This document shows positions 2 through 19,721 of a DNA stretch of 64,000 nucleotides, one piece after another. Below the pieces are notes generated by a model. That model was not told the DNA's origin. It saw nothing but the letters and a program-made list of their open reading frames with translations, and made no database searches. Location of the stretch: assembly GCA_040389905.1 (NCBI GenBank), contig JAZJZK010000027.1, positions 32,001-96,000 on the forward strand, given 5' to 3'. The translations under genes and the position numbers were made by a program. Numbering within the stretch: position 1 is the stretch's first letter; each line of letters starts with the position of its first letter. Origin of the DNA: Gemmatimonadota bacterium (GTDB taxonomy: Bacteria > Gemmatimonadota > Gemmatimonadetes > Gemmatimonadales > Gemmatimonadaceae).

Positions 2-784
2 CTGCTTGCCCTTTTCGGCGCAGAGACAGTGGTGGTACTTGCGGGAGTCGTCCACTTTGCAGGGCGCTGGGGTGCGGGACTTCCTGAGCAACCCCTGGTG
101 CGTCGGATGGCGATGATGGGTTTCCGAGCGAGCCTGTCGCTCATTCCCGCGTATCTCATCGTTCGTGGGGACGTCGTACTCGTACGAATGTGGCGCGGTG
201 CGGCGGAGACCGGATTGTATGCCATCGCAGGCCAGGTCGTGACGCTGATCTGGATGATTCCGGCCGCCGCCGCGCAGGTGCTGTTCAGCAGCATCGCGCG
301 ATCGACGTCGCGCGCAGCCGACGTGGCGCGCGTGAGCGCCGCGATGGTGTGGATCCTCGGATTGGTGTGTGCGGGTGCCTTGGTCATGGGTGCCCCCGCC
401 ATCCGGCTCGTGTTCGGACAGTCGTATTCCGGCGCGTTTCCGATGCTCGCCGTCCTCCTGCCAGGTGCCCTCGCGCTCGGAGTGGAGACAACACTCGTTC
501 AATACTTCAATGCCGGCGGCTACCCACTTCGGATCGTGAGGTACTGGGCGCTGGCGCTTGGGCTCAACGTGTCGCTGAATGTCCTGCTGATTCCCCGCTG
601 GGGCGCACTGGGTGCGGCTGCTTCTTCGACAGCTGGATATGTCCTGATTGCCGCACTTGTTGCGCTTCGCTTCCGCCATGAGACGGGGATCGGATTCCGG
701 GAACTGCTGCGCTTTCCTCGCCTTGCCGCCGCTTCCACTGTGACTGCGGTGCAGGCGAAGTCCGTGACCGGAGCAGTACAGTGA
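2..784 (+). CDS. Polysaccharide flippase (Wzx/MATE-like), C-terminal part; 5' end lies outside the window
   Basis: Frame is open from position 2. Multi-TM protein with 'GDVVLVR..RGAAETGLYAIA' and 'LNVLLIPRWGALGAA' motifs typical of polysaccharide-biosynthesis C-terminal domains; overlaps the GT gene by GTGA. Confidence 0.8.
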   Translation: MLALFGAETVVVLAGVVHFAGRWGAGLPEQPLVRRMAMMGFRASLSLIPAYLIVRGDVVLVRMWRGAAETGLYAIAGQVVTLIWMIPAAAAQVLFSSIARSTSRAADVARVSAAMVWILGLVCAGALVMGAPAIRLVFGQSYSGAFPMLAVLLPGALALGVETTLVQYFNAGGYPLRIVRYWALALGLNVSLNVLLIPRWGALGAAASSTAGYVLIAALVALRFRHETGIGFRELLRFPRLAAASTVTAVQAKSVTGAVQ

Positions 785-2499
785 ACCTCGTCCTGTCGGT
801 GCGAGACCTCGAGCACAAGCGAGTTGTGGCATTCGCGCGAGGGAACGGCGCGCGCGGTCTGTCCGCGGAACATTTCCGCAACATAGGCCCGCTGCGGGCA
901 CTCCAAACCCTGCGCGACCGCGCCTACGACGAGGTGGTGATCTGCGGCACCTCTGAGGAGCTCGAGAACTATCTTGCCGCTCTCTCGGCGGCGTCGCTGG
1001 CAGTGAGTACTCGCGCGAGACGGTGGGAAGACATCACCACCGGGAAAACAGGCCCCCTCACGCGTCGTCGTATCCTGGGCGACATCGCCGGTATGATGCG
1101 CGGCACGGGAGACGGGCTGCTTGCCATTCGACGCAAGAAGCGCGAGGTAGAGGCGCTCACCGCAGGACCGCGCGTTGCGCCGGTGTGGAACGGACCTGCC
1201 GAGCGCATTCTCTACCTGAAGGGTGGTCCGTTCAGCAATGTGAAGGTCGGCGGCTCCGTTGGGCACGTGGCCGGCGTCGCCAACGCCATGACTCGGGCGA
1301 ATCTGGATGTTCGCATGCTCGCTGTCGCCCCGCAGATATCCGTCAGCGATGAAGTAGACATCGATATCGTGCCGCCGCCTGCAACCTGGGGGCTCCCGGT
1401 CGCGGTGAACGCCGTGCGCTATTCCGAAACCTTTCGTCTCGCGGCAGAAGCCGTCGCGCGCGCCTGGGCGCCTTGCCTTTCCTATCAACGATTCAGTCCG
1501 CAGGACCTTACCGGCGCTCACCTCAGGAAGATGGGCATACCGTGGGTCGTCGAGTACAACGGCTCGGAAGTGTGGGCGCAGCGAAACTGGGGGCGAGCCA
1601 GCGCATTCGAGTCACTCGCTCGTCGTGTGGAAGTGTCGGCGCTGAGGCTGGCCGACCTGGTCGTCGTCGTCTCCGAGCCGCTGAAACGCGAGGTGCTCGA
1701 GCTTGGCGTGCCGGAAGAGCGCGTGCTGTGCTACCCGAACTGCATCGATCCCGGGACATTCGATCCGGCGCGCTTCAGCGGTGAAGACATTGCGCGCCTT
1801 CGCGCGGAGTTTGGTATCGCACCCGATGACCTCGTGCTGACCTTCATCGGGACCTTCGGTGAGTGGCACGGGACCGACGTGCTGGCCGATGCGATACGCG
1901 ACCTGATAGATCGTGACGCGGAATGGATGCGGTCGAAGCGCATTCGCTTTCTGCTCGTGGGGTCGGGTCTGCGGCTGCAGTATGCGGTGGACCGGCTCTC
2001 GCAGCCCGGGGATGAGAAGTTCGTGCACTTCGCCGGTGTTCAGCCGCAGGCGCGAGCTCCGCTGATTCTCGCGGCATCGAACATTCTCCTATCTCCGCAC
2101 AAGCCCAATGACGACGGAAGCGCGTTTTTCGGGAGCCCGACCAAGTTCTTCGAGTATCTCGCGATGGCCCGGCTGGTCATCGCGTCGGACCTCGAGCAGA
2201 TCGGCGATGTGGCGCGCGGCTGGATTCCGCTCGCTCCGCGCCCGCAGGCAGGAGTGAAGTCCGACCTGATGATACTCGTGGAACCGGGATCTGTTGACGG
2301 CTTGAATCGAGGGATTCGCGAAGCGTGTGATATGCCGGCTGCCGAGCAAGAGAGAATGGCGCTGAGATGCCGTGACGTGGCGAACGCCCACTTTACATGG
2401 GACGCCAATGTGGCGTGTGTGCTGGAGAGACTTCAGGCCGTCACCGGTGCCCCGGACCATGCGACTCATGCAGGTGAGTTGTCGGGTGTGCACTCATGA
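781..2499 (+). CDS. Glycosyltransferase family 4 (GT-B) with N-terminal extension
   Basis: 'ADLVVVVSEPLK', 'FIGTFGEWHG', 'GSPTKFFEYLAM..VIASDL', 'HFTWD' motifs. Confidence 0.85.
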   Translation: MNLVLSVRDLEHKRVVAFARGNGARGLSAEHFRNIGPLRALQTLRDRAYDEVVICGTSEELENYLAALSAASLAVSTRARRWEDITTGKTGPLTRRRILGDIAGMMRGTGDGLLAIRRKKREVEALTAGPRVAPVWNGPAERILYLKGGPFSNVKVGGSVGHVAGVANAMTRANLDVRMLAVAPQISVSDEVDIDIVPPPATWGLPVAVNAVRYSETFRLAAEAVARAWAPCLSYQRFSPQDLTGAHLRKMGIPWVVEYNGSEVWAQRNWGRASAFESLARRVEVSALRLADLVVVVSEPLKREVLELGVPEERVLCYPNCIDPGTFDPARFSGEDIARLRAEFGIAPDDLVLTFIGTFGEWHGTDVLADAIRDLIDRDAEWMRSKRIRFLLVGSGLRLQYAVDRLSQPGDEKFVHFAGVQPQARAPLILAASNILLSPHKPNDDGSAFFGSPTKFFEYLAMARLVIASDLEQIGDVARGWIPLAPRPQAGVKSDLMILVEPGSVDGLNRGIREACDMPAAEQERMALRCRDVANAHFTWDANVACVLERLQAVTGAPDHATHAGELSGVHS

Positions 2500-3326
2500 G
2501 CGGACCGGTAACAGGAGACGCCGATCGGAAGTCGGCCGTACGCGATTTCTGGAACATGGAATCCTGCGGGGAGCGCTATGCCGTTGGCGCGGATGAAGCA
2601 GCGGCACTCAACGAGCAATCGGAGATTCGTTACGAATTGGAACCGTACCTCCGCTCCTTTGCTCGTTTCCACGACGGGCGCGGCCAGGACGTACTTGAAG
2701 TCGGGGTGGGGATGGGCGCGGATCATCTCGAATGGGCAAAGGAGAAGCCGCGTTCGCTGACCGGGGTCGATCTCACACCGCGCGCCATCGAATTCACGAG
2801 AGCTCGATTTGCGGCTGCCGGTCTTACCGCCAATGTTGAGCTGGCGGACGCCGAGCGGCTGCCATTTCCAGATGAGAGTTTCGACCTTGTGTACTCATGG
2901 GGCGTCCTGCATCACTCCCCGGATACGCAGCGGGCCGTCGACGAGGTGCGCCGTGTCTTGCGACCCGGTGGCAAGGCCCGGATCATGATCTATCACTCGC
3001 GATCGATTGTTGGAGCGGTGCTGTGGGTCCGATACGGACTCTTTGCCGGCGCTCCCTTCCGTTCCCTCTCGTCCATCTACGCCAGTCACCTGGAGAGCCC
3101 CGGGACGAAAGCGTACTCCCTGTCAGATGCGCAACGGCTCTTTGGCCGTTTCTCATCAGCGAAGATGGAGGTGTGCCAGGCGCCCTCTGACCTCCTGCTT
3201 CCCGGGATGGGGCGTCGGCACGAAGGTCCACTACTGACGCTCGCGCAGTTTGTCTGGCCGCGGCGCCTCATCCGGACCTTCGGCCGCGGCGTGGGCCTCT
3301 ACCTCATGATCGACGCGGTGAAGTAA
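2496..3326 (+). CDS. Class I SAM-dependent methyltransferase
   Basis: 'VLEVGVGMG', 'DAERLPFPDESFDLVYSWGVLHH', 'RVLRPGG'. Confidence 0.9.
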   Translation: MSGPVTGDADRKSAVRDFWNMESCGERYAVGADEAAALNEQSEIRYELEPYLRSFARFHDGRGQDVLEVGVGMGADHLEWAKEKPRSLTGVDLTPRAIEFTRARFAAAGLTANVELADAERLPFPDESFDLVYSWGVLHHSPDTQRAVDEVRRVLRPGGKARIMIYHSRSIVGAVLWVRYGLFAGAPFRSLSSIYASHLESPGTKAYSLSDAQRLFGRFSSAKMEVCQAPSDLLLPGMGRRHEGPLLTLAQFVWPRRLIRTFGRGVGLYLMIDAVK

Positions 3327-3328
3327 GC

Positions 3329-4153
3329 CTACTTTTCGCAGAATGCGATCAGGTACCATCCAAAGTGGCGCGCGAGAAATGGGCGCATGAACGCCGGGAT
3401 GACCTTGAAGGCGCGTTGATCGGGCGTCAAGCCGAGATGGTCAACGGCCAGGCGGACGCTGGAGAAAGCAAAAAGCATTTTCCGAAAAGCCGCTCGCCCG
3501 TATCGCTTCACCAGCGGACGTGCGCCACGATCCGCGCTCTGTTCCTCGATCCGCCAGTACGCCGACTCGAGCGAATCGGAGCGCCACGATTTCTCCCGCA
3601 GCCAACGTGCAGCGAAGACCGCCGAGAAAACGGAGTGCCTGTGGTAGACCGCGAGGATTGCCTTGCCACCCGGCTTCAGCACACGGTAAATCTCGTTGAT
3701 CACATCCTGCGTACCGGGGGTGTGGTGGATCACCCCAAAACTGTACACCACATCGAACGTCGCATCCGGGAAGGGAAGCGTCTCCGCGTCGGCCAGGCGG
3801 AGGTCCGCCGGAATGCCCGCCAGCTCGAACCGCTTTCGCGCGAGGCGCTGGTGCGTCGGCGACAGGTCGACACCGGTGACCTTCGCGCCCCCTTTTGCGA
3901 ACTGCATCAGGTCCGTTCCTTGGCCATAGCCGATTTCCAGCACCGACTTCCCGCGATACCCGTCGTAACCCATCACCGTTTTCATCCACGGCGCATAGAT
4001 CTCGTACCGGTCCCGGTCGACGGCGGCGAAGTACTCGGCGGAGCCTTGCTCGAAGCCTGCGCCGCCCGCATAGCCACAGGCGTCGTCCGTCCATTGCTTT
4101 TGTGCTTCGGCCTTGAGCCCAGTGACCTTCGGGGCAGTCTCCGTGACGGGCAA
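3329..4153 (-). CDS. Class I SAM-dependent methyltransferase, paralog of 2496-3326
   Basis: 'VLEIGYGQG', 'DAETLPFPDATFDVVYSFGVIHH', 'RVLKPGG'; TTG start. Confidence 0.88.
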   Translation of the reverse strand: MPVTETAPKVTGLKAEAQKQWTDDACGYAGGAGFEQGSAEYFAAVDRDRYEIYAPWMKTVMGYDGYRGKSVLEIGYGQGTDLMQFAKGGAKVTGVDLSPTHQRLARKRFELAGIPADLRLADAETLPFPDATFDVVYSFGVIHHTPGTQDVINEIYRVLKPGGKAILAVYHRHSVFSAVFAARWLREKSWRSDSLESAYWRIEEQSADRGARPLVKRYGRAAFRKMLFAFSSVRLAVDHLGLTPDQRAFKVIPAFMRPFLARHFGWYLIAFCEK

Positions 4154-4420
4154 TCGATATCTCCAGATCAGACGCGTGAATGGCGTTTCAGCTATTCGGC
4201 ATGGCGCGTCACGGCGGTAGCTGGACGCGCTCCGGCGTTCGTACTACAAGCATCGTGCCCGCCTCAACAGCCATTCGAGTCGTGAACTTTCCCACGTTTC
4301 GGGATGGAGCAGCACCGCCTCGAGTGCTGCGCGCCGGCCTCTGGTCCGCCTGAGCTTGTCCAACGGCACATCTCTAGCAACGATGCCCAATGGAGCACTC
4401 CACGAAAAGCAACAACCTCA

Positions 4421-5257
4421 ATGCCCTCTTTGATGATCAATTCCGTGCGCTTGGCGAAATGGTATCTCTCCCTTCTTCCGGAAAGCCCCCCGGATTACTG
4501 GATGCACCGAGAGCCGATGGTCCGCGCGCGCATGGAATACGATGACGAGCGCTCGGCCGTCGGCTTCCATACGCTATTCACGATGGACCTTGCAAATAAG
4601 GACGTGCTCGACCTGGGATGCGGTTATGGCGGGCGCAGTGTCTACTTCAAGGAGCTCGGTGCGCGTCGCGTGGTAGCGATGGAAATCCGCGGGGAGATGA
4701 TCGATGAGGCGCTTGCGTTCGCCGCGGAGCGCGGCGTCACACTGGAGGGACTCGTTTCCGTTGGTGAGCAAATCGGACTTCCGCATGAAACAATTGACAT
4801 CATCACGTGCTACGACGTGTTCGAGCACGTTGAATCTGTCGCGGCGACGTTACAGGAGTGCTATCGTGTGCTCCGACCAGGCGGGATCGCGTACATCGTG
4901 TTTCCTCCATACCTCCATCCACTTGGCGGATCCCATCTTCACTCGTATCTATCGCGCTCACCTGCGCCCAACGCACTGTTCGGACGAGATACACTCTGGA
5001 CTGCGGTCCGCGAGCTGCTCATCGAGCGCGGAACCTTTGTCCCGGACAAGCGTCCCACTGATCCCCTTCCAGGGGTAAACGGAACAACCATCGCGCAATT
5101 CAGGAAGGCCTTGGCAGCGGTCCCATTCCGCGATGCGCAAGTCACGCTGCGACCTGTCAATGTTCCGCGACTAGGCGCCGTCGCAAGCGCGCTCTCGCGG
5201 ATCCCCGTCGTCCAGGAGGTCGCAGTCAGTCGGCTCCTTTGCGAACTGGCCAAATGA
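4421..5257 (+). CDS. Class I SAM-dependent methyltransferase (start uncertain; ORF open from 4304)
   Basis: 'VLDLGCGYGG', 'DVFEHV', 'RVLRPGG'. Confidence 0.82.
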   Translation: MPSLMINSVRLAKWYLSLLPESPPDYWMHREPMVRARMEYDDERSAVGFHTLFTMDLANKDVLDLGCGYGGRSVYFKELGARRVVAMEIRGEMIDEALAFAAERGVTLEGLVSVGEQIGLPHETIDIITCYDVFEHVESVAATLQECYRVLRPGGIAYIVFPPYLHPLGGSHLHSYLSRSPAPNALFGRDTLWTAVRELLIERGTFVPDKRPTDPLPGVNGTTIAQFRKALAAVPFRDAQVTLRPVNVPRLGAVASALSRIPVVQEVAVSRLLCELAK

Positions 5258-5284
5258 TTGTCTGGCCGTGCAATGAGCACCGCC

Positions 5285-6595
5285 TCAGATGTTCCGCGCC
5301 AGCCTGCTGGTCAGCGGATCCCAGCTGTGACTCCCGTCCTTCGTGATCAGTTCCACGACCGGGAGCGGAAAGATCATTCCTGTACCGGCATCGATCATCG
5401 GCTGCTCACGCTTCAGGAACTCGGTGCGGAAATGCCAGGGCAACACGAGATAGTAGTCCGGCTTCATCGCCCGTGACCGCTCCTCGGAGATGATGGGGAT
5501 ATTCGTGCCCAACGTGCGCGCCCCATCTTTGTCCGGATTGCGGTCGGCCGCGTAGGCGATGTGCGACTTATCCAACCCGCAGGCCTGAAGAATCGTGTTT
5601 CCCTTGGTCGACGCCCCATAGATGTGGATCGTCTTCCCCTGGTCGCGGAGGTGCGTGACCAGCGACGTCAGACTCCGCACGGCGTTCGAGACGCGTGCCT
5701 TGAACAACTCGTACGGCAGGTCTGTCTCAAGTTCGCGCTCGAATTCGCGGTGACGCAGGTCGGTCAGCTCTCGCCGAAACGTATCGTCGCCGACCGGATG
5801 GTCTTCCTCGTGCGTCACGAACACGCGGATGCTGCCGCCGTTGATGCTGTTCAACGCAGCGCGGCGAACCTTCATCCCTCCGGCGGCGACGATCCGCTCG
5901 ATCACGGCGAGACTGTAGTACTCGAGGTGCTCGTGGCAGATGGTGTCGTACGAATTGAGCTCCAGCGTGAGTGGCAAATATGCCACCTCGAAGATCCACA
6001 CACCGCCCGGCGCCAGCAATGCCTTGATGTTGCGCACAAAGTCAACCGGATCCTCGAGGTCGTAGAACATGGCGATCGACGTGACGATATCGAACGGCTG
6101 CTCTCCCGCCGCGCGCTGCAGGGTGCGTGACGGAAAGGTCTCCTGCACGACGTGCACGGTGGGCTCGCAGCCCAGCACCGCGTCGGACGGATCGCACCCG
6201 AACTGCACGACCTCTGCCGGGTAGTTGCGCAGCAGCGTCCCGTCGTTGCAGCCAATATCGAGCACGCGCAGCGGCGTGCGCCCCAACGTGGACATGGCAT
6301 CCGATACCACGCTGGCGAGGTGCCGGCGCATCGTTTCATTCGTGCCGGACCGGTACCAGTAGACCGAATAGAGGATTTCCGGTGGAACGCTGCACACCAT
6401 CTGCACCAGTCCGCACGCCTTTTCATCTCGGCTCGGATCGCAGCGCACCAGTGCTGTGGGAATGCGCCGCATTGGAGGCAACGGCTTTCCCTCCATCACA
6501 AAGGAGCCCTGGAGGTACTGCGGACCGAGGTCCAGCACCGGTGTCAACGCGGAGGATCCACAGGCGCGACACGTCGACCGAAAGGTCAGATGCAT
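5285..6595 (-). CDS. NDP-hexose C-methyltransferase (TylCIII/NovU-like, Zn-binding N-terminus)
   Basis: N-terminal 'CRACG' plus 'VRC...ACGLVQ'; 'VLDIGCNDGTLL', 'HEHLEYYS', 'YGASTKGNT', 'PDYYLVLPWHF'. Confidence 0.88.
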   Translation of the reverse strand: MHLTFRSTCRACGSSALTPVLDLGPQYLQGSFVMEGKPLPPMRRIPTALVRCDPSRDEKACGLVQMVCSVPPEILYSVYWYRSGTNETMRRHLASVVSDAMSTLGRTPLRVLDIGCNDGTLLRNYPAEVVQFGCDPSDAVLGCEPTVHVVQETFPSRTLQRAAGEQPFDIVTSIAMFYDLEDPVDFVRNIKALLAPGGVWIFEVAYLPLTLELNSYDTICHEHLEYYSLAVIERIVAAGGMKVRRAALNSINGGSIRVFVTHEEDHPVGDDTFRRELTDLRHREFERELETDLPYELFKARVSNAVRSLTSLVTHLRDQGKTIHIYGASTKGNTILQACGLDKSHIAYAADRNPDKDGARTLGTNIPIISEERSRAMKPDYYLVLPWHFRTEFLKREQPMIDAGTGMIFPLPVVELITKDGSHSWDPLTSRLARNI

Positions 6596-6599
6596 GGTA

Positions 6600-7625
<1,026 letters not shown>

Positions 7626-7662
7626 AGTGCGAGAAACCGGGACTGGCGAGAGGGGCGAGATT

Positions 7663-8661
7663 CTAGTGATGGTGGAGGGCGTGCGTGTCGACGTACTCGA
7701 GCAGCTCATCCGACGAGACGGTGGCAGCGCCCAACTTTCCGACTTCGATGCCGGCGGCAACGTTCGAGATGTATGCTGCCTCAGCGGCGGACGCGCCGCT
7801 GGCCAGCATACACGCAAGGTAAGCCGTCACGGTGTCTCCAGCTCCCACGACATCGAACACTTCGCGCGCCACCGTCGGTGCACGGGTGATGGCACCGGCC
7901 TCGTCTACAAGAACCATCCCGTGCTCCCCCAGCGTCAAGAGCAGGTATTTCGCGCCGAGCCGCCGCACCGTGTGCGCGAGGGCGTCATGATGCTCCATGT
8001 CGACTTCCGCGCCCATCGCCGCCGCCAGTTCCCGGCGGTTCGGCTTGAAGATTGTCGCGCCCTGAAAGTGGAAAAAATGCCTGAACTTCGGATCGACGAC
8101 GATCGGGATGCCGCGCGCCATAGCGGCCTTGAGGCCCGCGTCGATGAGCGCTTCCGTCAGCACGCCCTTGTTGTAGTCCTCGAGCACGAGGGCGTCTGCA
8201 CCGTCAATTGCGGCGCGCGTATTGTCGATCAGCTGCCCAATTTCCGCACCGGTGAGCGGCGAGTCCTCTTCTTCGTCGATGCGGAGCAACTGCTGGGACC
8301 GCGCCACGATGCGCGTCTTCTGCGTCGTCACTCGGCCGACCGTGGCGACCTGATGGGTGAGGATTCCAGCCGCGCCCAGCATGCTCCGCAGGCGGCCCCC
8401 GCCCGAATCGGCGCCGAGCGCGGCCACGAGTGTACATTCGGCGCCGAGCGCGCGAACGTTTTGTGCCACGTTGGCGGCACCACCGAGCGCATAGTCTCGC
8501 TTCTTGACCCGGACGACAGGTACGGGCGCCTCTGGAGAGATACGCTCGACGTCGCCGGACACGTAGACGTCGAGCATCGCATCGCCAATCACAGCAATTC
8601 GTTGCCCGGCGGCTCTCTTGAGAAGTTCGACCAATCGGCCGCGGCTCGGGGCAGGTATCAT
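7663..8661 (-). CDS. rfaE1: D-glycero-beta-D-manno-heptose-7-phosphate kinase (HldA/RfaE1, PfkB family)
   Basis: '[11 protein letters not shown]', 'GGAANVA', 'DYNKG', '[11 protein letters not shown]', 'VGKLGAATV'; ATG at 8661 is supported by the upstream promoter. Confidence 0.92.
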
Positions 8662-8671
8662 CGTTGCGCTG

Positions 8672-8700
8672 AACCTAGAGATCTTGTCGAGGGCGGTCAA
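8672..8700 (-). promoter_or_regulatory. Sigma70-type promoter for the rfaE1-gmd-C-methyltransferase operon
   Basis: Minus strand reads TTGACC-N17-TAGGTT, ending 10 nt before ATG 8661. Confidence 0.6.
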
Positions 8701-8781
8701 CGTGGATGAGGGCGTTGCCACCGCCATTCTTAGCGCTTTTCGGGCTAGGCGCGCCCGAGGCGCACGTTCACATTACACGCA

Positions 8782-9822
8782 ATGATCGCTGTCGTGACCG
8801 GTTCGTCAGGGTTCATCGGGTCGCACCTCGTCGAGGCGCTGCTCGCGCGCGGCGCGTCGGTGCGTGCGCTGCTGAGGCCGGATTCGGTCACGGGCCATCG
8901 TGATCCTCGTGTGAAATGCTGGCACGCGGACCTCCTCGACGACCGTTCAGTCCGCGAATCGGAGGTATGGCGTGGGGCAACGCACGTCTTCCACGTGGGT
9001 GGCGTGACGAAGGCCAGAACGCTCGCGCAGTTTCGGGACGGCAACACCATTCCCACGGCGAATATTCTCGCCGCGCTGTCGGCGCGTCCGTCGGGGAGCG
9101 TGCGTTTCATTCTCGTGTCATCGCAGGCGGCGGCAGGGCCCGCCGAGTCACCAGACCGGCCGGTGACCGAGGACGATGAGCGGAAGCCGATCGAAGCCTA
9201 CGGGCGGAGCAAGGGCGAAGCGGAAGACGTCACGACGCGATATTCACAATCCATCCCGGTCACGATCCTGCGGCCTGGTGCGGTCTATGGTCCGCGAGAT
9301 GTCGATTTCCTGAATGTGTTCAAGCAGGCAGTGAATCGCGTCGCATTTCATGCAGCGTCGCGCGAGCAGGCGATGTCCGTCGTGTACGTGCGCGACCTGG
9401 TGGAGGCGATACTCATCGCGGCAAATGCACGCGCGGCCGTCGGTCGAACCTATTTCGTGGCGGGCGAGGCGCCTGTGACGTGGGGTCAGATCTACGCACT
9501 GGTCGCGGGTTTTGCGGGCGTTCAGCCGATCGAACTGCAACTTCCTGCCGCAGCGTTGTGGCTCGCCGGTCAGGCCGGAAGCTTGCTTAGTCTCCTCACG
9601 GGCAAGGGTCTGCTCGTGAACGCGAACAAGATGGCACTGGCGCGCCCGAAGTGGTGGCTCTGCGATTCCTCGCGCATTCGCCGAGAACTCGGTTGGTCGG
9701 ACGCGGTCAGCCTACAGCAGGGCATTCTCGAGACGTATCTTTGGTACGTGAATGCTGGATGGCTTCGTCCGGCCGCGGGCGGCACGTCCAGGAACGCAGC
9801 GAACTCGGAGGAATCTGTCTGA
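8782..9822 (+). CDS. NAD-dependent epimerase/dehydratase (extended SDR); candidate 3-keto-ceramide/3-ketosphinganine reductase
   Basis: 'VTGSSGFIGSHL' Rossmann motif, 'YGRSK' (YxxxK), 'RPGAVYGPRD'. The specific role is inferred from context. Confidence 0.8.
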   Translation: MIAVVTGSSGFIGSHLVEALLARGASVRALLRPDSVTGHRDPRVKCWHADLLDDRSVRESEVWRGATHVFHVGGVTKARTLAQFRDGNTIPTANILAALSARPSGSVRFILVSSQAAAGPAESPDRPVTEDDERKPIEAYGRSKGEAEDVTTRYSQSIPVTILRPGAVYGPRDVDFLNVFKQAVNRVAFHAASREQAMSVVYVRDLVEAILIAANARAAVGRTYFVAGEAPVTWGQIYALVAGFAGVQPIELQLPAAALWLAGQAGSLLSLLTGKGLLVNANKMALARPKWWLCDSSRIRRELGWSDAVSLQQGILETYLWYVNAGWLRPAAGGTSRNAANSEESV

Positions 9823-9830
9823 GCACGACG

Positions 9831-12800
9831 ATGAAGAACGATGCGAAACGCGACCGCTGCCGGACACTCTTCGAGCTCGTCGAGTATCGAGCCGAAGCGA
9901 GCGCCGACAGGACGGCCTACCGCTTTGTGTCGTCGTCGGGTGAAGAAGACGGTACGCTGACCTACGGCGAGCTGCGCGAACGAGCAGCAATGATGGCGAG
10001 CCATCTGGCTGCTGTCACCGAGGCCGGCGATCGTGTCATCCTGCTATTGCCGCCGGGGCTGGATTACGTCGCGGCGTTGTTCGCCTGCCAATTTGCGGCC
10101 ACGGTCGCGGTGCCGGCCTATCCGCCCAATCCCCGGCGCCCGGATGGTCGCGTCGCCGGCATTATCGAAGACAGTGGCGCACGCGTCGCCATCGTCTCGT
10201 CCGCATTGCATGGCCGCCTTGGGCGCTCGATCGAGAACTCGCCGGTCCTTGGCCGCGTCGTCTGGCTCGACATCGAATCGATGAACGGGGACTCGGCGGA
10301 CGGCGGCATACGTCCTCCAGCGCGCGATGCGCTCGCGTTTCTGCAGTACACGTCTGGGTCGACGGGTGCACCGCGCGGCGTAATGCTGCCGCATGCGTCG
10401 GTCATGCACAACTTCGGCGTCATCCATCATGCGCTGCGCCACAGCGAAGACGATGAAGGCGTGTTCTGGGTGCCGCCGTACCACGACATGGGCCTCGTTG
10501 GCGGAATTCTCGAGCCGCTGTACGCCGGCTTTCCGACGAATCTGATGTCACCGTCGACGTTCTCGCAGCGGCCCGCGCGGTGGCTCGAGGCATTGTCGAA
10601 GTACCGCGCGACGACGAGCGGCGCGCCGAACTTTGCCTTCGACCTCGCAGCGGAACGCATTACGGAGGAAGAGAAGACCGCGCTCGATCTGTCGCATTGG
10701 CGCGTGGCCGCGAATGGAGCGGAACCGGTGCGCGCGGATACTATCGAGCGCTTCACGCGGGCGTTCGCGCCGTACGGCTTTCGGGCAGAGACCTTCATGC
10801 CGTGTTACGGTCTCGCGGAAATCACGTTGTTCGCGGCAGGAGAAACGCGGGTCACGCCGCCAGTCATCCTCTCCGCCGATCGCGCCCTCCTCGAGGCGCG
10901 ACGCCTCGCCGAAAGTGTTGCTCCCGACGCGTCGCGGCTCGTGACAGTCGGCCCCCCCGCGCGCGGCGTGACGATCTGCATCGTCGATCCCGATACGAAG
11001 CGCGAGTGCGCACGCGACGAAGTGGGGGAGATCTGGCTGGCGAGCGAAAGCATCGGGTCGGGCTATTGGGGACGGCCGGCCGAGACGAAGGATGCCTTCA
11101 ACGCCCGACTGGATGGCCGCGATGAACGATTCCTTCGTACGGGAGACCTCGGCGCGTTCTACGAGGGTGATCTCATCGTCACTGGACGCCTCAAGGATCT
11201 GGCAATCGTCGGTGGCCGCAATTTCTACCCGCAAGACATCGAGCGCGCCGCAGAAGAGAGTCACCCCAACGTACGTTCGGGTGGCGTCGCAGCATTCAGC
11301 GTCGGCGACCTCGGCAGTGAGAAGGTCGTCGTGGTGGCGGAAGTGGTGCGCCACCATCGTGAGCACCAACAGGGTGAGGTCGTCGGCGCGGTCCGGACGT
11401 CGGTCGCCGATGCACTTGGCGTCGTGGTCGACGACGTCGTCCTGATTCGACACGGGACGCTCCCGAAAACGTCGAGCGGAAAGTTGCAGCGCCGGCTCAC
11501 CAGGGCGCGCTTCCAGTCGGGTGAGCTGCGCGGCACGGAACCACCCGCACCGCCGCGGAATGGGACGCACGCGCCGGACGAGCATGCGTCCAGCGCAGAG
11601 CGGGCAGCAGGGATGCGCTCGTGGCTGCGCGATTATGCGCGAACGACGCTCGATTCGCGGCGTATGGATGAACGTCGTGAGATGGATCCGAGTCTTACCC
11701 GCGAGTTCGCCGCGCGCGGATTCTTCGGCTTGCAAACGCCGCAGAGCCTTGGTGGTACGGCGCTCGCGCACACCGATATGCTACGCGTCGTCGAGCAGTT
11801 GTCGGCAATCGATCTGACGCTCGCGACGTACATCGGCGGACACAATTCGCTCGGGATCCAGCCGATTCTCCGTCACGGGTCCACCGCGCTCCGCGATGCC
11901 GTCATCCCCCAGCTTGCGCGCGGTGCGCGGATCGCGGCGTTGGCGGTCACTGAACCGGCCGCCGGCTCGAATCCGTGGGCGATCGAGTCCGTCGCCATTC
12001 CAGTCGACGGGGGTTATCGGCTGCATGGCGTGAAGAGTTGGATTGGTTCGGCAGGTGTGGCCGATGTCTTCAACGTGCTGGCGCGCGTGCCGGGTGATAC
12101 TGGCGGTCTCACGGCCTTCGCGCTCAATGGAGGAGCGGCGGGACTGCGTATTGGTGATCCCGCGCTCACGATGGGCATGCGGGCCATGCTCCAGAATGCC
12201 GTCCATCTCGACGGTGTCTTTGCAGCCAGCGACGTGATTCTCGGCCATGTCGGCGGCGGCTTCGATGTGGCTCACGACACCTTCCTCCAGGCGCGCCTCG
12301 GCGTGGCCGCCATGTGCCTCGGTGCCATCAAGCGTTCGATCCAGCTCGCGCACCGATACGCGGCGCGACGGAAGGTGGCGTCCGGCAAGTTGCTGGCGCA
12401 CCCGGTGACGCGAGCGCGTCTGGGCCGAATGACTGCCTCCGCCGCCGCGCTCGATACCTACCTCGAGGTGATGGCGTTGCGCCTCGATGCCGGTGTGGCG
12501 CTACCGGAAGATGCATTCGTCATCTGCAAGACGGCCGCACCTGAGCTGTTATGGGATGCCGTCGATAGCGCGATGCAACTGCTCGGGGGGCGAGGATACG
12601 TCGAGACGAATCCGTTGGCGCCGATGCTGCGTGATGCTCGGCTCCTCCGCATCTTCGAAGGTCCCACCGAGCCGCTGTTGGTGCATCTCGGTGCCCGAAC
12701 GCTCAGGGAGGGGGCAGGGCAGCGCACGCTCCTCGGCGACGTTCTCGGCGCGCCGGACATTGCGGATCGCGTCGCCGAAGTGGCGCTGTTGACGACGGGC

Positions 12801-14705
12801 CGGCTCCTGCGCTCCGGGCGCGGCACCGCGCGCGCGACGGCGCAACAGTGGGCGAGTTACCGCCTTGGCCTCGTCGTTACCGAAGCGGCCATGTTGGCAT
12901 CGGCACGAATGGCCGCACAGCGCGCCATTCCCGGCGCTGAACACGCCATCACTGTCTTCGAGGAACGGCTCGAGGCAGCCGTCGCGCGCTGCGTCACGCC
13001 GCATGCGGACGAGCGGCCTGCACTCGACGCGCCTGGTCTCGACGATGCCATCGCGTGGGCGGGCGACGACATCGGTGACATTGAACAGCGCTCCAACACG
13101 GCGCTCGACCCCATGCTCGCCGTCGACTGGGACGACTCGCAGCGCCCAGCCGAAGCAGCGGAGGCGCCTGCCTCCGTCGCAGCGACTCGTACGCCGTCGC
13201 TGTCGTTCATCCTCGAGTGGCTCGTCGAGGAATTCCAGCTGCCACCCGGTACGGCGGAACCCGAAACGAGCCTCCGCGATCACGGCCTCGACTCACTGGC
13301 CGCAACGCGACTTGTCGTGGCGCTCGAAACCCACCTTGGTCGTCGGATCGACGCGTCGCTCCTGTGGCGCGCGGCAACGATCGGTGAATTTGCCGCTGCC
13401 GTCGACGGCGCGCGCGTGGAGGCGTTCACCTTTACGCCGCCCCCGGCGGCGCGCGATCATCGTGCGGATGGAATTCCGGTGGAACAGTGGCCCGAGTTCC
13501 GTGCCCTGCGCTCCCGAATGGCCGACGTCACGACACGAGGCACCGCCAACCCGTACTTCGCCGTCCATGAAGGCATCTCGGGAGCGACAGCCGTGGTGGC
13601 CGGGCGCGAGCTGCTGAATTTCGCCAACTACAATTACCTGGGCCTCTCCGGACATCCTGCCGTCACGCGCGCCGCGCGCGATGCAACTGACCAATACGGT
13701 ACGTCAGTGTCGGCGAGCCGTATTGCCTCGGGCGAACGACCGCTTCATGGCCAGCTCGAATCCGCCATCGCGAAATTCGTCGGCGCGGATGACGCGATCG
13801 TTTTCGTGGGTGGACACGCGACGAACGTGTCCGTGCTGTCGCACCTGTTCGGTCCAGGCGATCTCGTCCTCTGTGACGTGCTGATGCACAACAGCGCCCT
13901 GCAGGGAGCCGCGTTCTCGGGCGCGCGCTGGCTCACCTTTCCACACAACGACTGGCAGGCGTGCGATGCCATGCTCGCCGAGCTGCGTGCTCAGCATCGG
14001 CGAGCGGTCGTGGTCATCGAAGGTGTCTACAGCGCCGACGGCGATGTGCCGGATCTCGGCAAATTCGTAGACGTGAAGGTGCGTCACAACGCCATGCTCA
14101 TGGTCGATGAGGCGCATTCGCTCGGCGTGCTCGGAACCGGGGGCCGCGGAATCGCCGAGGGCGCGGGGGTCGAGCCGGCGGCAATCGACATCCTGATGGG
14201 AACGTTGAGCAAGACGTTGGCGAGCTGCGGCGGCTACGTCGCCGGCAGCAGCGCCCTGGTCGAGTATCTCAAGTACACCGCGCCCGGCTTTGTCTACAGC
14301 GTCGGCATCTCACCCCCGAATGCGGCGGCAGCGCTCGAAGCGCTGCGCGTTCTCGAGGCTGAACCCGAGCGCGTTACGCGCCTGCAGCAGCGAGCGGCGT
14401 ACTTTGCCACGGTGGCGAGAGAAGCGGGGCTGAATACGGGGCGCAGTGCAGGGAGTGCCGTCATTCCAATCGTCGTCGGCGACTCGCACCGCGCCGTGCG
14501 CGTCTCGCAACGCCTGTTCGATCGGGGTATCAACGTGCAGCCGATGATCAGCCCCGCGGTGCCGAACGATGAAGCGCGCCTCCGATTCTTCATCTCCAGC
14601 GAGCACACCACTGAGCAAATCGACGAGGCCATTCGCTTGACGGCAGAAGCGCTGGTGTCGAGCACAGAGAGCGATTCGTCGTTGCAACTGACGGAACAAG
14701 CGTAG
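9831..14705 (+). CDS. Multidomain FAAL - acyl-CoA dehydrogenase - ACP - PLP alpha-oxoamine synthase (SPT/AONS family) fusion, ~1624 aa
   Basis: FAAL (~9831-11530): 'FLQYTSGSTG', 'YHDMGL', 'PCYGLAE', 'RTGDLG', 'PKTSSGK'. ACAD (~11610-12700): 'ALAVTEPAAGS', 'GVKSWI', 'QLLGGRGY', 'RIFEGPTE'. ACP: 'GLDSL', Ser at 13293. PLP domain (~13480-14705): 'NYNYLGL', 'VDEAHS', 'GTLSK', Lys at 14211. Confidence 0.9.
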   Translation: MKNDAKRDRCRTLFELVEYRAEASADRTAYRFVSSSGEEDGTLTYGELRERAAMMASHLAAVTEAGDRVILLLPPGLDYVAALFACQFAATVAVPAYPPNPRRPDGRVAGIIEDSGARVAIVSSALHGRLGRSIENSPVLGRVVWLDIESMNGDSADGGIRPPARDALAFLQYTSGSTGAPRGVMLPHASVMHNFGVIHHALRHSEDDEGVFWVPPYHDMGLVGGILEPLYAGFPTNLMSPSTFSQRPARWLEALSKYRATTSGAPNFAFDLAAERITEEEKTALDLSHWRVAANGAEPVRADTIERFTRAFAPYGFRAETFMPCYGLAEITLFAAGETRVTPPVILSADRALLEARRLAESVAPDASRLVTVGPPARGVTICIVDPDTKRECARDEVGEIWLASESIGSGYWGRPAETKDAFNARLDGRDERFLRTGDLGAFYEGDLIVTGRLKDLAIVGGRNFYPQDIERAAEESHPNVRSGGVAAFSVGDLGSEKVVVVAEVVRHHREHQQGEVVGAVRTSVADALGVVVDDVVLIRHGTLPKTSSGKLQRRLTRARFQSGELRGTEPPAPPRNGTHAPDEHASSAERAAGMRSWLRDYARTTLDSRRMDERREMDPSLTREFAARGFFGLQTPQSLGGTALAHTDMLRVVEQLSAIDLTLATYIGGHNSLGIQPILRHGSTALRDAVIPQLARGARIAALAVTEPAAGSNPWAIESVAIPVDGGYRLHGVKSWIGSAGVADVFNVLARVPGDTGGLTAFALNGGAAGLRIGDPALTMGMRAMLQNAVHLDGVFAASDVILGHVGGGFDVAHDTFLQARLGVAAMCLGAIKRSIQLAHRYAARRKVASGKLLAHPVTRARLGRMTASAAALDTYLEVMALRLDAGVALPEDAFVICKTAAPELLWDAVDSAMQLLGGRGYVETNPLAPMLRDARLLRIFEGPTEPLLVHLGARTLREGAGQRTLLGDVLGAPDIADRVAEVALLTTGRLLRSGRGTARATAQQWASYRLGLVVTEAAMLASARMAAQRAIPGAEHAITVFEERLEAAVARCVTPHADERPALDAPGLDDAIAWAGDDIGDIEQRSNTALDPMLAVDWDDSQRPAEAAEAPASVAATRTPSLSFILEWLVEEFQLPPGTAEPETSLRDHGLDSLAATRLVVALETHLGRRIDASLLWRAATIGEFAAAVDGARVEAFTFTPPPAARDHRADGIPVEQWPEFRALRSRMADVTTRGTANPYFAVHEGISGATAVVAGRELLNFANYNYLGLSGHPAVTRAARDATDQYGTSVSASRIASGERPLHGQLESAIAKFVGADDAIVFVGGHATNVSVLSHLFGPGDLVLCDVLMHNSALQGAAFSGARWLTFPHNDWQACDAMLAELRAQHRRAVVVIEGVYSADGDVPDLGKFVDVKVRHNAMLMVDEAHSLGVLGTGGRGIAEGAGVEPAAIDILMGTLSKTLASCGGYVAGSSALVEYLKYTAPGFVYSVGISPPNAAAALEALRVLEAEPERVTRLQQRAAYFATVAREAGLNTGRSAGSAVIPIVVGDSHRAVRVSQRLFDRGINVQPMISPAVPNDEARLRFFISSEHTTEQIDEAIRLTAEALVSSTESDSSLQLTEQA

Positions 14706-14824: not shown

Positions 14825-15709
14825 CTACAGCAATCTCCGCTCGACGACGCGCGCCACTCCAGTCGCCGCGATGCCCACGAACAACCCTGCCACGACATCC
14901 ACGGCGTAGTGGTATCCGCCGTATACGGCTCCAAACCCAAGCCCGATTGTCACGAAAACCATGACGATGCCGAGCGCTCGCTGAAATCGGAGCGCGCTCA
15001 TGGTCGCGACGACCGACGCCGCCACGTGCGATGAGGGAAAGGCCGTCCCGCGCGATGAGCCCGACTCCAACAGCGCGATGACGATCGAGCGAACGGGGCC
15101 ATCGGGCGCGTCGGACGGACCGAGCAGGAAGCGTGGGCCATCCACGGGCAGCAAGGCATACGTGGCAAAGCACAGGCAGTACACGACGACCAGTGCGAAG
15201 GTTGACCGCACAAACGCGTTCCGACTGCCAGTCAACGTCAACAATGCCGGCGGAGCATAGATGAGGGCATAGTAGGCGAGGTAGCAGAGGTGCAGCACCT
15301 CGCTCAATGCACTCGAGTGCAGCTGGGCGGCCAGCGTACGCGAAGGGTCGGAGGCGAAAGCGCTCGCCTCCCAGCCGCGAACCAACGCGTCCAGGTGCGG
15401 CCGGCCGACGCCTTCGATGATCCACCGCAGCTCGATGTAGAGAAAAGGCCCGACCGCGAGGGGCGTCCAGTCGCGCACGGTGCGCACGATTCGGCTGGGA
15501 AAAGTGCCGCACACCAACGCACATACCACGGCGGAGAGCATCGCGGTGTGCATAGCCAGCGGCGCCCACGTTGCCGTCCTTGCGGCCAGCCCTACGAGGG
15601 GCACGACCATCACAACGAGGTAGACCGACAGGACCCCGAGCGAGAGCGCCGTGTAGCGGTCGCTCACATCGCGGTCCGGCATCCTCAACCGATCGAGTAG
15701 TCGACGCAT
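14825..15709 (-). CDS. PAP2-superfamily membrane protein, AUR1/inositolphosphorylceramide-synthase-like
   Basis: Multiple TM helices; 'YALLPVDGPR', 'AFPSSH' and 'YHYAVD' match the AUR1/PAP2_3-type catalytic His/His-Asp motifs. Confidence 0.78.
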   Translation of the reverse strand: MRRLLDRLRMPDRDVSDRYTALSLGVLSVYLVVMVVPLVGLAARTATWAPLAMHTAMLSAVVCALVCGTFPSRIVRTVRDWTPLAVGPFLYIELRWIIEGVGRPHLDALVRGWEASAFASDPSRTLAAQLHSSALSEVLHLCYLAYYALIYAPPALLTLTGSRNAFVRSTFALVVVYCLCFATYALLPVDGPRFLLGPSDAPDGPVRSIVIALLESGSSRGTAFPSSHVAASVVATMSALRFQRALGIVMVFVTIGLGFGAVYGGYHYAVDVVAGLFVGIAATGVARVVERRLL

Positions 15710-15765
15710 GGCCCGCAGTATTACCTTTGCGCTCATCCGCCGATAGCCACCCGTTCAGGACGCCC

Positions 15766-17012: not shown

Positions 17013-17825
17013 TTGCCGACCCTTTCTACACGCCTCGCGTCCGCCACCAAGGCAAAACTCCGCACCGTTCAGGACTACTTCTCCCTGGCCGGCCGCGCGT
17101 TGGGCTTCATTTTCGCCCGGCCCTTTTACGCGCAGGATCTCATCCAGCAGATGGATGAGATCGGTGTAAAGTCGCTGGGGATCGTGCTGCTCACCGGTTT
17201 CTTCACCGGAATGGTGCTCGCACTGCAATCGAGCGTGCAGCTCCAGACCTTCGGCGCGACGATGTACATCGGACGACTCGTTTCCGCATCGATGATCCGC
17301 GAGCTCGGCCCCGTGCTCGCCGGTCTCATGGTCGCTGGACGCGTAGGGTCCGGAATCGCCGCGCAACTCGGATCCATGCGCGTGACCGAGCAGATCGACG
17401 CCTTGAACACACTCGGCACCGATCCCATCAAGAAGCTGGTGACGCCGCGCGTACTGGCTGCGCTACTCATGCTGCCGGTGCTCACCGTCATCAATGACTT
17501 CGTCGGCATCCTCGGCGGCAATCTCATTTCGACGGTGCTGGTCGGCATTCCGAGCGGGCTGTACTGGCGCACGGTGTGGGAGCAGATCGCGTCCGATGGA
17601 TTCACGATGCGCTTCATTCCGAACGACTTCGTCCAGGGCATCACGAAACCGTTCGTCTTCGGCGGCATCATTTCGATTTCGGCGTGCTACTTCGGGCTCA
17701 ACACGACCGGCGGTACGGAAGGCGTGGGTCAGGCAACGACGCGGACCGTGGTGCTCTCGAGCATCCTGATCCTCATCGTGGACTACTTCCTCACGCAGAT
17801 CCTTCTTTCGCTGTTTGCACCATGA
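17013..17825 (+). CDS. mlaE: MlaE-family ABC permease
   Basis: 'RELGPVLAGLMVAGRVGSGIAAQLGSMRVTEQIDAL', 'GGTEGVGQATT'. Confidence 0.92.
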   Translation: MPTLSTRLASATKAKLRTVQDYFSLAGRALGFIFARPFYAQDLIQQMDEIGVKSLGIVLLTGFFTGMVLALQSSVQLQTFGATMYIGRLVSASMIRELGPVLAGLMVAGRVGSGIAAQLGSMRVTEQIDALNTLGTDPIKKLVTPRVLAALLMLPVLTVINDFVGILGGNLISTVLVGIPSGLYWRTVWEQIASDGFTMRFIPNDFVQGITKPFVFGGIISISACYFGLNTTGGTEGVGQATTRTVVLSSILILIVDYFLTQILLSLFAP

Positions 17826-18742
17826 TCGACGATCCGCGTGACAAGGGCGACGACGGAACGTTGCCGCGCGAGTCCAAGCGTCGCGGTGAAGGCCGGCGTC
17901 TTGCCGAGCGGAAGCCGGAGAACGTGCGCGCGGCCATTCGGGACGAGCTCGCGGTCGATGAGCCTGCCGATGCGGCGATCGCCGCAAAAAAGGCCGAGCG
18001 GGGCGAAGCCGAGGCGATCATCGAGCTCAGCCACGTCTTCCTTGCGTTCGATTCGCCTATTCTCGAAGACGTCTCGTTCGTTGCGCGCAAAGGGGAGACG
18101 ATCTGTGTGGTCGGAGAGTCGGGTACCGGTAAGAGCACAGCGCTCAAGCTCATCCTTCGCCTACTGGTTCCAGACAAGGGATCGGTCTGTATCGATGGCC
18201 AGGACATCACCGGACTCACCTTCAAGGAAGCACTCGAGGTTCGGCAGCGCATGGGCATGGTCTTCCAGGGGGCCGCGCTGTTCGACTCGATGTCCGTGTT
18301 CGAGAACATCGCATACCCGTTGCGAGAGCACACGGATCTGTCCGAGGAGGAGATCGAACAGCGCGTGCGGGAGAAGCTGGATTTCGTCGATCTCGAGCCG
18401 GACCGTGTCATGAGCCAATTGCCGTCGGAGCTGTCTGGGGGCATGCGGAAGCGCGTCGGCATCGCGCGCGGCATGGCCAACAATCCCGAGATCATGCTGT
18501 ACGACGAGCCGACCTCGGGGCTCGATCCGCTCACCACGGGCACGATTACGCGGCTGATCATGAAGCTGCAGCGAGAGCTGAACGTTACCAGCGTGGTCGT
18601 TTCGCACGACATTCGCTCCGTGTTCCGCATGGCGACACGCGTTGCCGTTCTGCACGACCGAAAGATCGCCTTCTTCGGCACGCCGGAAGAGATGTCCGCC
18701 TCCGACGACACTTACCTCCGCGATTTCCTCGGCGGCAACTGA
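17822..18742 (+). CDS. mlaF: MlaF-family ABC ATPase
   Basis: Walker A 'GESGTGKS', 'FQGAALFDSM', 'LSGGMRKRV', 'YDEPTSGLDP'. Confidence 0.92.
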   Translation: MIDDPRDKGDDGTLPRESKRRGEGRRLAERKPENVRAAIRDELAVDEPADAAIAAKKAERGEAEAIIELSHVFLAFDSPILEDVSFVARKGETICVVGESGTGKSTALKLILRLLVPDKGSVCIDGQDITGLTFKEALEVRQRMGMVFQGAALFDSMSVFENIAYPLREHTDLSEEEIEQRVREKLDFVDLEPDRVMSQLPSELSGGMRKRVGIARGMANNPEIMLYDEPTSGLDPLTTGTITRLIMKLQRELNVTSVVVSHDIRSVFRMATRVAVLHDRKIAFFGTPEEMSASDDTYLRDFLGGN

Positions 18743-18743
18743 C

Positions 18744-19721
18744 ATGAAACGCTCTTCGACACTCACGTGGGACCAGCTGCGCGTCGGCCTCGTCATTCTC
18801 CTCGCCGTAGGAGTCATCGGCGTCGCCGTCTACAAGCTGGGAGAATCCGCCAATCTCTTCGCCAAGCGCTACGAACTCATTGCCTATCTGCCGGATGCAA
18901 ACGGGTTGAAGGTAGGGGGCTCGGTGATGATCGCTGGCCAACTCGCCGGCATCGTGGAGAAGATCGATTTCCTTCCCGTGGATGCGGATACGACGCGCAA
19001 CCTGAAGCTCACGCTCAAGGTCGACGTCAACCTCCGCGAGCAGATCCGCCGCGACTCGCGCGGGAAGTTGCGAACACTCGGACTGTTAGGGGACAAGGTG
19101 TTCGACATTTCGCCGGGAACGCCGCGGACGCAGCCGCTCGCGGAGGGCGACACCGTCTCCATCACCGCCGTCCTCGACTATGACGCGGTCATCGCACAGG
19201 CGAGCGGTGCCGTCACGGACATGGTTTCGCTCACGCGTGACCTCCGCGCCATCACCGGCGGCATCGTCCGAGGTGAGGGCTCGCTCGGGAAACTCGTCAC
19301 GGATCGCACCCTCTACGATCAGCTCAACAACACGTTGGCGCGCGCCAATACGATGCTGGCGAGTCTTCAGAATCCCAACGGGACGATGGGACGCATGCTC
19401 AACGATCCCTCGCTCTACAACAAGCTCATTGGCGTCATCAGCTCCACCGACTCGCTGATCATGTCGATCAATTCGAGTAAGGGCACGGCGGGCATGCTGC
19501 TGCGTGATTCGACGCTCTACAAGAACATGGTGGGGATCACCGTCGGGGCGGACTCCTTGCTCAAATCCTTATCGAACGGAAAGGGAACCGTTGGCCGATT
19601 CCTCACGGATCAGACGCTCTACGACCAGGTCAACAAACTCGTGACGGACCTGAGCGCCATTCTTGCTGACATCCGAAAGGATCCCAGCAAATACACGAAG
19701 GGCATCATCAAGGTTTTCTAG
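18744..19721 (+). CDS. mlaD: MlaD/MCE-domain protein with long repeated helical C-terminus
   Basis: N-terminal TM helix; MCE motifs 'ANGLKVGGSVMIAG' and 'GLLGDKVFDISPG'; four 34-aa repeats. Confidence 0.88.
   Translation: MKRSSTLTWDQLRVGLVILLAVGVIGVAVYKLGESANLFAKRYELIAYLPDANGLKVGGSVMIAGQLAGIVEKIDFLPVDADTTRNLKLTLKVDVNLREQIRRDSRGKLRTLGLLGDKVFDISPGTPRTQPLAEGDTVSITAVLDYDAVIAQASGAVTDMVSLTRDLRAITGGIVRGEGSLGKLVTDRTLYDQLNNTLARANTMLASLQNPNGTMGRMLNDPSLYNKLIGVISSTDSLIMSINSSKGTAGMLLRDSTLYKNMVGITVGADSLLKSLSNGKGTVGRFLTDQTLYDQVNKLVTDLSAILADIRKDPSKYTKGIIKVF

Follow-up and report, generated by a model that had tools for sequence, protein, structure and literature searches.

A four-domain protein in a ceramide-type gene cluster of a Gemmatimonadota bacterium as a candidate source of unsaturated sphingoid bases

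We analyzed a 64,000-nucleotide stretch of a Gemmatimonadota genome (GCA_040389905.1, contig JAZJZK010000027.1, positions 32,001 to 96,000 of the forward strand), referred to as the window and numbered from its first letter. The gene under study (Table 1) translates without internal stops into 1624 amino acids. Pfam identified, in this order, an AMP-binding domain (aa 18-413) followed by a FAAL (fatty acyl-AMP ligase) C-lobe, the N, M and C domains of an acyl-CoA dehydrogenase (ACAD; Acyl-CoA_dh), a PP-binding domain representing an acyl carrier protein (ACP), and an Aminotran_1_2 domain dependent on pyridoxal phosphate (PLP), which is an alpha-oxoamine synthase (AOS). The FAAL P-loop motif reads QYTSGSTG, while IFEG (starting at 12651), GLDSL (13284) and GTLSK (14199) contain Glu943, Ser1155 and Lys1461 (codon at 14211), respectively. 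All three codons lie where a preliminary description of this DNA had placed them, and its uninterrupted reading frame with four intact motifs was confirmed by translation, Pfam and motif search. The gene lies inside a ceramide-type cluster, and its single protein product is predicted to unite fatty acid activation, dehydrogenation and carrier functions with a putative serine-condensing domain. A longer GTG start at 9651 would overlap the upstream gene, and the homologues align from the start at 9831. A scan for promoters and terminators gave a signal no better than chance.

The four-domain architecture pointed out in the preliminary description recurs in other genomes. Among the 120 matches listed for a search with residues 560-1624, 28 (including the query) carry all four families in one chain, 86 have a three-domain FAAL-ACP-AOS layout, and six are partial or thioesterase-led ACAD-ACP-AOS forms. 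Since 28 of the 120 listed homologues share the four-domain chain, the fusion is no chance read-through. The closest named relatives among these matches belong to the Gemmatimonadota. Two of the proteins (P0027 and P0030) show a thioesterase-ACAD-ACP-AOS layout without a FAAL.

The first domain has an ANL fold that is nearer to FAALs than to CoA ligases, an intact P-loop and a carrier in cis. Its nearest solved structures are 7R7E-G, followed by known FAALs, with FadD32, FadD23, FadD28 and the E. coli FAAL among the top PDB matches, and its top NCBIfam matches are FAAL-type models, each below its equivalog cut-off. A phosphopantetheinyl transferase and a pair of electron transfer flavoprotein (ETF) genes are encoded in the same genome; in some relatives the transferase gene is located directly 3' of the fusion.

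The AOS domain (PF00155, E 2e-48) displays all hallmarks of its family, namely fold-type I, the His, the Asp-x-Ala-His motif, the PLP lysine and the C-terminal Arg. His1353, Asp1426, His1429, Lys1461 and Arg1585 are invariant across 19 aligned homologues. The best PDB match is a bacterial serine palmitoyltransferase (SPT); identity to Sphingomonas Spt is 30-33%, and identity to an AOS from Halomonas that is adjacent to a polyketide synthase (PKS; locus L009) is 55%. When compared with PfSgaB, 205 of 348 ungapped positions are identical (∼59%, counted by eye with the sequence from the supplement of PMC12134224). In a quick AOS tree (46 rows, SH-aLRT support only, some long-branch warnings, PfSgaB absent), 30 rows form a clade (support 100) in which the domain groups with AOS domains of PKS-adjacent, planctomycete or cyanobacterial origin; Sphingomonas Spt and the separate spt-like genes of the same bacterial family fall outside it. 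No PKS adjoins the fusion gene within the window.

The preliminary description had left the amino acid substrate in doubt on account of the motifs GTSVSASR (starting at 13698), SGERP (13728), GHATNV (13812) and APGFVYSVG (14280), which it likened to the RkpG/WcbT subfamily. These motifs or close variants of them are carried by PfSgaB (PMC12134224, supplement), so that the doubt about serine turns into apparent support for it. PfSgaB condenses C16-C20 acyl-CoA surrogates (chain lengths deduced from product masses) with L-serine, while Ala and Gly are almost excluded (PMC12134224); by this likeness, L-serine is likely to be the amino acid used by the fusion. At window positions 13812-13829, AOS domains accompanied by an ACAD read GHATN like PfSgaB, and most three-domain homologues without an ACAD read GHPAN. 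In total, 26 AOS columns differ between the two groups, but they are confounded by a single origin and were not used as evidence. The preliminary description had also named a BioF activity on pimeloyl substrates as an outcome that would overturn its reading. This function is unlikely because the domain scores 338 bits against a curated cut-off of 426. Kbl was likewise rejected (289 bits against 460); the other AOS of the genome directly follows a zinc-dehydrogenase-like gene on contig C58, taken as tdh.

The gene neighbourhood resembles that of bacterial ceramide pathways, with bCerS-like and CerR-like genes near the AOS. The fusion is likely to be co-transcribed with the upstream gene for a short-chain dehydrogenase/reductase (SDR), and is followed by a PAP2_3 membrane protein, possibly a head-group transferase or phosphatase, and by a bCerS-like N-acyltransferase. 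In Sphingomonas loci spt is directly preceded by an SDR, and ∼6 kb 3' of it lies a protein with 33-35% identity to the 380-aa acyltransferase; one such protein is 35% identical over 382 aa (these neighbours were labelled by position after PMC11324152, not by annotation). In a reverse search of the genome, the best match of the Sphingomonas SDR was the window SDR, and the only match of the acyltransferase was the window gene. [quoted passage not shown] Of the 13 Gemmatimonad loci with the four-domain gene, 12 have the SDR upstream, and 9 have PAP2 and acyltransferase genes downstream; the misses are short contigs, and the loci overlap the genome counts given below and are not independent of them.

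Table 1. Features of the fusion gene and its neighbours in the window.
Feature	Position	Strand	Remarks
Four-domain FAAL-ACAD-ACP-AOS gene	9831..14705	+	1624 aa; translation and Pfam
FAAL domain, aa 18-567	9882..11531	+	P-loop at 10344
ACAD core, aa 595-955	11613..12695	+	Catalytic-position Glu943 at 12657
C-terminal extension of the ACAD	12696..13130	+	Common to starter-module ACADs of the same family
ACP domain, aa 1128-1191	13212..13403	+	Ser1155 at 13293
PLP AOS domain, SgaB type, aa 1260-1602	13608..14636	+	Pfam and homologue alignment
Extended SDR, CerR-like, likely 3-keto reductase	8782..9822	+	Ends 8 nt 5' of the fusion
PAP2_3 membrane protein	14825..15736	-	Weak, sub-cut-off match to phosphoinositol dihydroceramide synthase; start codon uncertain
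bCerS-like N-acyltransferase, 380 aa	15766..16905	+	GTG start deduced from sequence

The acyltransferase is present in 39 of the 151 genomes of the bacterial family (unpublished genomes G007, G033, G034 and G134 included). A separate, more distant AOS (32-39% identical to the query) is located within 350 nt of it in 21 of these 39, and the fusion is located 45-4151 nt from it in nine; the other nine are not assignable from the listed rows. The layout of single-domain spt, acyltransferase and SDR was confirmed in three of the 21. Matches to the separate spt-like protein did not exceed 43% in any of the nine fusion genomes, compared with 59% in a control genome; the genome studied here is 84.6% complete. 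As judged by gene content, the fusion takes the place of the separate spt-like gene beside the acyltransferase and, because of this replacement, most likely does the job of Spt in a membrane-lipid pathway. Within the genus, the fused-type AOS is found in 41 of 55 genomes, 40 of which have a single match. A close ACAD (≥60% identity) is present in 16 of the 41 genomes, including the unpublished G159, whereas the other 25 lack a close ACAD match.

Taken together, we are confident that the fusion belongs to a serine sphingolipid pathway. The domain could instead use another amino acid, or its product could be an aminoketone metabolite or the lipid anchor of a polysaccharide, with the polysaccharide genes upstream in the window belonging to it. 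The amino acid does vary among AOS enzymes, and the domain stays below the cut-off of all three NCBIfam SPT models (NF047599, 296/500 bits; NF047600, 310/640; NF047603, 221/670). However, these models describe other clades and the close relative PfSgaB is serine-selective. Moreover, the fusion is accompanied by the bCerS-like and CerR-like genes, the polysaccharide block is not conserved next to it in relatives, and one copy per genome across most of the genus fits a membrane lipid. We consider this alternative quite improbable.

The ACAD domain possesses the N, M and C domains and the Glu of an acyl-CoA/ACP dehydrogenase. VLCAD and ACAD9 are the solved proteins closest to it, and the Glu in their RIFEG motif lines up with Glu943, at the position shared by MCAD and VLCAD, in agreement with the catalytic position given in the preliminary description. 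In ACADs this Glu is the base that removes the alpha-proton, and the product is typically a trans-2-enoyl thioester. The position is occupied by Glu in all 34 ACAD-AOS homologues. Conservation of the ACAD (66-72%) is not below that of the FAAL (47-67%), and the TEP, KxWIGS, Arg847 and QxxGGRG parts of the FAD motifs are kept. The domain belongs to a large family of assembly-line ACADs that are 37-50% identical outside the close clade and mostly occur in FAAL-ACAD-ACP starters preceding ketosynthase (KS), condensation or reductase domains (Pfam run on 31 of the 150 representatives listed). An NvlI-like FAAL-ACAD-ACP protein is 40% identical to the query ACAD over 521 aa, its link to NvlI resting on an nvl-like gene set in two Nostoc loci, one of them Pfam-scanned. 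By sequence comparison, the ACAD is related to those of PKS starter modules.

In both the AOS and the FAAL tree, the three- and four-domain forms of Gemmatimonads constitute one clade with support 100. The four-domain forms are nested within it in the AOS tree (support 98); in the FAAL tree eight of the nine group at 100, and the ninth has no resolved place. This pattern makes it likely that the ACAD was inserted once into an older three-domain protein, with later losses being possible. The cyanobacterial four-domain proteins group apart in both trees, which suggests that their layout arose separately. One of their genes is followed by genes for a short-chain reductase and a glycosyltransferase.

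The cyanobacterial carriers (L118-L120 and L122) are cultured strains, and their loci are possible glycosphingolipid loci. In L122 (8147-18007), the four-domain gene is followed by genes for an SDR, an MGDG-synthase-like glycosyltransferase, a fatty acid hydroxylase and a second FAAL, while the L119 locus encodes an SDR, a Rieske oxygenase and a lactone oxidase. Five Nostoc loci (L146:6604-15118, L141, L161, L178 and L184) contain consecutive separate genes for an AOS, a FAAL, an ACAD of the same family, a desaturase and an ACP, dividing the same chemistry among individual proteins, with an AOS from another clade.

We propose the following pathway. The FAAL would adenylate a long-chain fatty acid and load it onto the ACP, the FAD-dependent ACAD, with Glu943 serving as the base, would oxidize C2-C3 of the acyl-ACP and probably pass the electrons to ETF, and the SgaB-type AOS would join the enoyl-ACP to L-serine and release 3-keto-sphing-4-enine. 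In Spt-type condensation, C2-C3 of the acyl chain become C4-C5 of the base. The released product would probably be N-acylated and reduced to ceramide rather than left as a free base; the bCerS-like acyltransferase and the SDR, acting in one order or the other, would turn it into a ceramide whose base is d(n):1, to which the PAP2 protein and a glycosyltransferase set described below may attach head groups. Genus members without the ACAD would make the saturated version. A pathway of acyl-ACP synthetase, ACP, Spt, CerR and CerS is a precedent (PMC11324152). FAAL loading, AOS release and a sphingoid product, as put forward in the preliminary description, gain support from the likeness to PfSgaB and from the ceramide-type gene context. 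The trans-2 bond that it ascribed to the ACAD is a prediction: ACADs acting on FAAL-loaded chains produce delta-2, delta-3-cis or delta-4 bonds (PMC9113097).

Several observations weigh against parts of this pathway. The FAD-binding motifs are non-canonical family-wide, with EGP instead of EGA or EGT after the Glu and VASG in place of the canonical QFG. Because the domains share a single polypeptide, an acyl-ACP that is still saturated could arrive at the AOS before the ACAD acts. The bCerS-like protein matches no Pfam or NCBIfam model and was labelled by synteny and likeness, and two desaturase-family genes are encoded elsewhere in the genome. No AOS acting on a 2-enoyl thioester was reported in the parts of PMC11765627, PMC13612406, PMC6148460 and PMC13351049 that were covered. 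The pathway assignment for the fusion and its clade rests on sequence.

The protein could instead be a self-loading SPT that makes mainly saturated 3-ketosphinganine, with an ACAD that is bypassed, minor or engaged in other chemistry such as a hydroxylation leading to a 4-hydroxy base. In line with this, the FAD motifs are non-canonical. Furthermore, those of the 25 ACAD-less genus members that were examined keep the same neighbours, and the ACAD is therefore dispensable for the pathway; the products of PfSgaB are saturated as well (PMC12134224). However, 16 genomes retain an intact ACAD with FAAL-like conservation and Glu943 at the dehydrogenase position, and the recurrence of the layout in cyanobacterial proteins, which group separately in the AOS and FAAL trees, speaks for a selected function. 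We regard a mainly saturated product as unlikely, though a serious contender, and a sphingoid base desaturated by the ACAD as probable.

The position of the double bond is more difficult to predict. Related starter ACADs are not uniform: LipB makes a delta-3-cis bond while the 60% identical Orf22 makes a delta-2 bond (PMC9113097), and TamT, also acting on a FAAL-loaded chain, is predicted to form a 3,4 bond (PMC5939613), LipB and TamT being likened to this ACAD by their described products and not by sequence. The nearest linkable relative with a known product is the NvlI-like protein, whose ACAD belongs to this family. In the nvl paper, double-bond formation "seems" beta,gamma, but the text is ambiguous between the ACAD and the dehydratase (DH) domains of the PKS (PMC9324945). 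If the ACAD placed the bond beta,gamma (delta-3, possibly cis) or shifted it in another way, the outcome would be a 5-ene sphingoid base, and the non-conjugated thioester might escape 1,4-addition in the AOS site. On the other hand, most lipopeptide ACADs reviewed in PMC9113097 give delta-2 or delta-2,4 bonds. According to a review, mammalian SPT rejects cis-unsaturated acyl-CoAs, so that cis chains are poor substrates, and accepts a trans-9 acyl-CoA (PMC11765627); this speaks for a trans bond, provided that the chain goes through the AOS. Finally, the beta,gamma remark may refer to DH domains and not to the ACAD. The two references given for it are reportedly studies of double-bond shifts in PKSs. 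A 5-ene base appears unlikely to us, slightly more so than a saturated one.

The 4E double bond of sphingosine is the most likely of these outcomes, and we put its chance at a little less than even. The full scenario is more tentative still and somewhat short of even: this lineage would make 4E ceramides dehydrogenase-first, by means of a starter-module ACAD placed in a self-loading SPT that displaced spt. In the same scenario, the four-domain layout of cyanobacteria seems to be an independent construction.

Further genes with possible links to lipids or polysaccharides were noted. A polysaccharide-type block (window 29-8727) encodes a GT4 glycosyltransferase, three SAM methyltransferases, a C-methyltransferase, gmd and a HldE kinase domain; a link between this block and the fusion was rejected, as relatives carry other genes there. 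The acyltransferase gene is followed by MlaE/F/D lipid transport genes (window 17013-19721), and L089 and L090 likewise have such genes close to the cluster. A set of a GT4 glycosyltransferase, an LPG_synthase_TM protein and a polysaccharide deacetylase, which may decorate the ceramide, adjoins the SDR-fusion genes in most relatives (for instance L086:3676-6469). Here it is located outside the window, ∼30 kb upstream (genome G000, C27:7938-10689), with other genes, including the polysaccharide block, in between. A second FAAL cluster with a fatty acid desaturase is present on another contig (G000, C37:13350-24455), along with proteins labelled by eye as carrier-plus-reductase-like, acyltransferase-like, methyltransferase-like and PEP-utiliser-like. 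No FA_hydroxylase was found in the genome at its 84.6% completeness.

If the proposed pathway is correct, a soluble single protein would convert fatty acid, ATP and serine into an unsaturated base, representing a new route and a second way of making the 4E bond, one that needs no oxygenase. Ceramides of the d18:1 type in soil and water lipidomes would then not need to be eukaryotic, and the protein could serve as a compact biocatalyst for sphingosine. The 16 genomes with and the 25 without the ACAD within one genus provide a natural control. Even with the bond elsewhere, there would be more sphingolipid makers than the curated Spt models catch.

The 4E bond of sphingosine is normally added last by an O2-dependent desaturase. 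In eukaryotes this enzyme is DES1/DEGS1, a membrane di-iron dihydroceramide delta-4 desaturase. The end product, a 4E ceramide, would be the same, whereas the flavin dehydrogenase of the fusion would act first, on acyl-ACP. The bacterial sphingoid bases in the literature compared are mostly saturated. PfSgaAB(C) of Pseudomonas fluorescens MYb115 (PMC12134224) shares with our system the SgaB-type AOS, a carrier-bound donor, a neighbouring reductase and a sphingoid product. There, however, an iterative PKS builds the chain, the AOS is separate and the products are saturated C24-C28 bases, while in our system the chain comes from a FAAL, the protein includes an ACAD, and the fusion lies between CerR-like and bCerS-like genes. 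All five functions of the AasR/AcpR/Spt/CerR/CerS pathway of Caulobacter and other Rhodobacteria (PMC11324152) are represented in the cluster, which differs in the fusion of the first three, in having a FAAL as ligase and an AOS from another clade than Sphingomonas Spt, and in its additional dehydrogenase.

FAAL-ACAD-ACP starters are known from NvlI (PMC9324945), enduracidin Orf45, LipB/Tar5-type proteins (PMC9113097) and TamA/TamT (PMC5939613). In these modules, as proposed here, fatty acid loading is followed by ACAD oxidation on the carrier; however, the recipient of their chain is a KS, a condensation domain or a reductase-transaminase of specialized metabolism, and not an AOS in cis in what seems to be a membrane-lipid cluster. 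Three-domain A-CP-AOS proteins were catalogued in 2013, where they make up 9 of 46 Aminotran_1_2 rows of Table S1 with no product assigned (PMC3870968); an ACAD occurs in none of the 46 rows and a luciferase-like domain in one. The parts covered of the FAAL papers PMC8460268 and PMC11837247 contained no fusions to oxoamine or oxononanoate synthases, and PMC11334938 and PMC11087976 contained no fusion or desaturase for the terms searched. A full-text literature search did not find the four-domain protein described, although subscription papers and supplements may contain such a description. Each part of the system is known from elsewhere; what appears to be new is a four-domain variant of the bacterial ceramide pathway with an unusual desaturation step.

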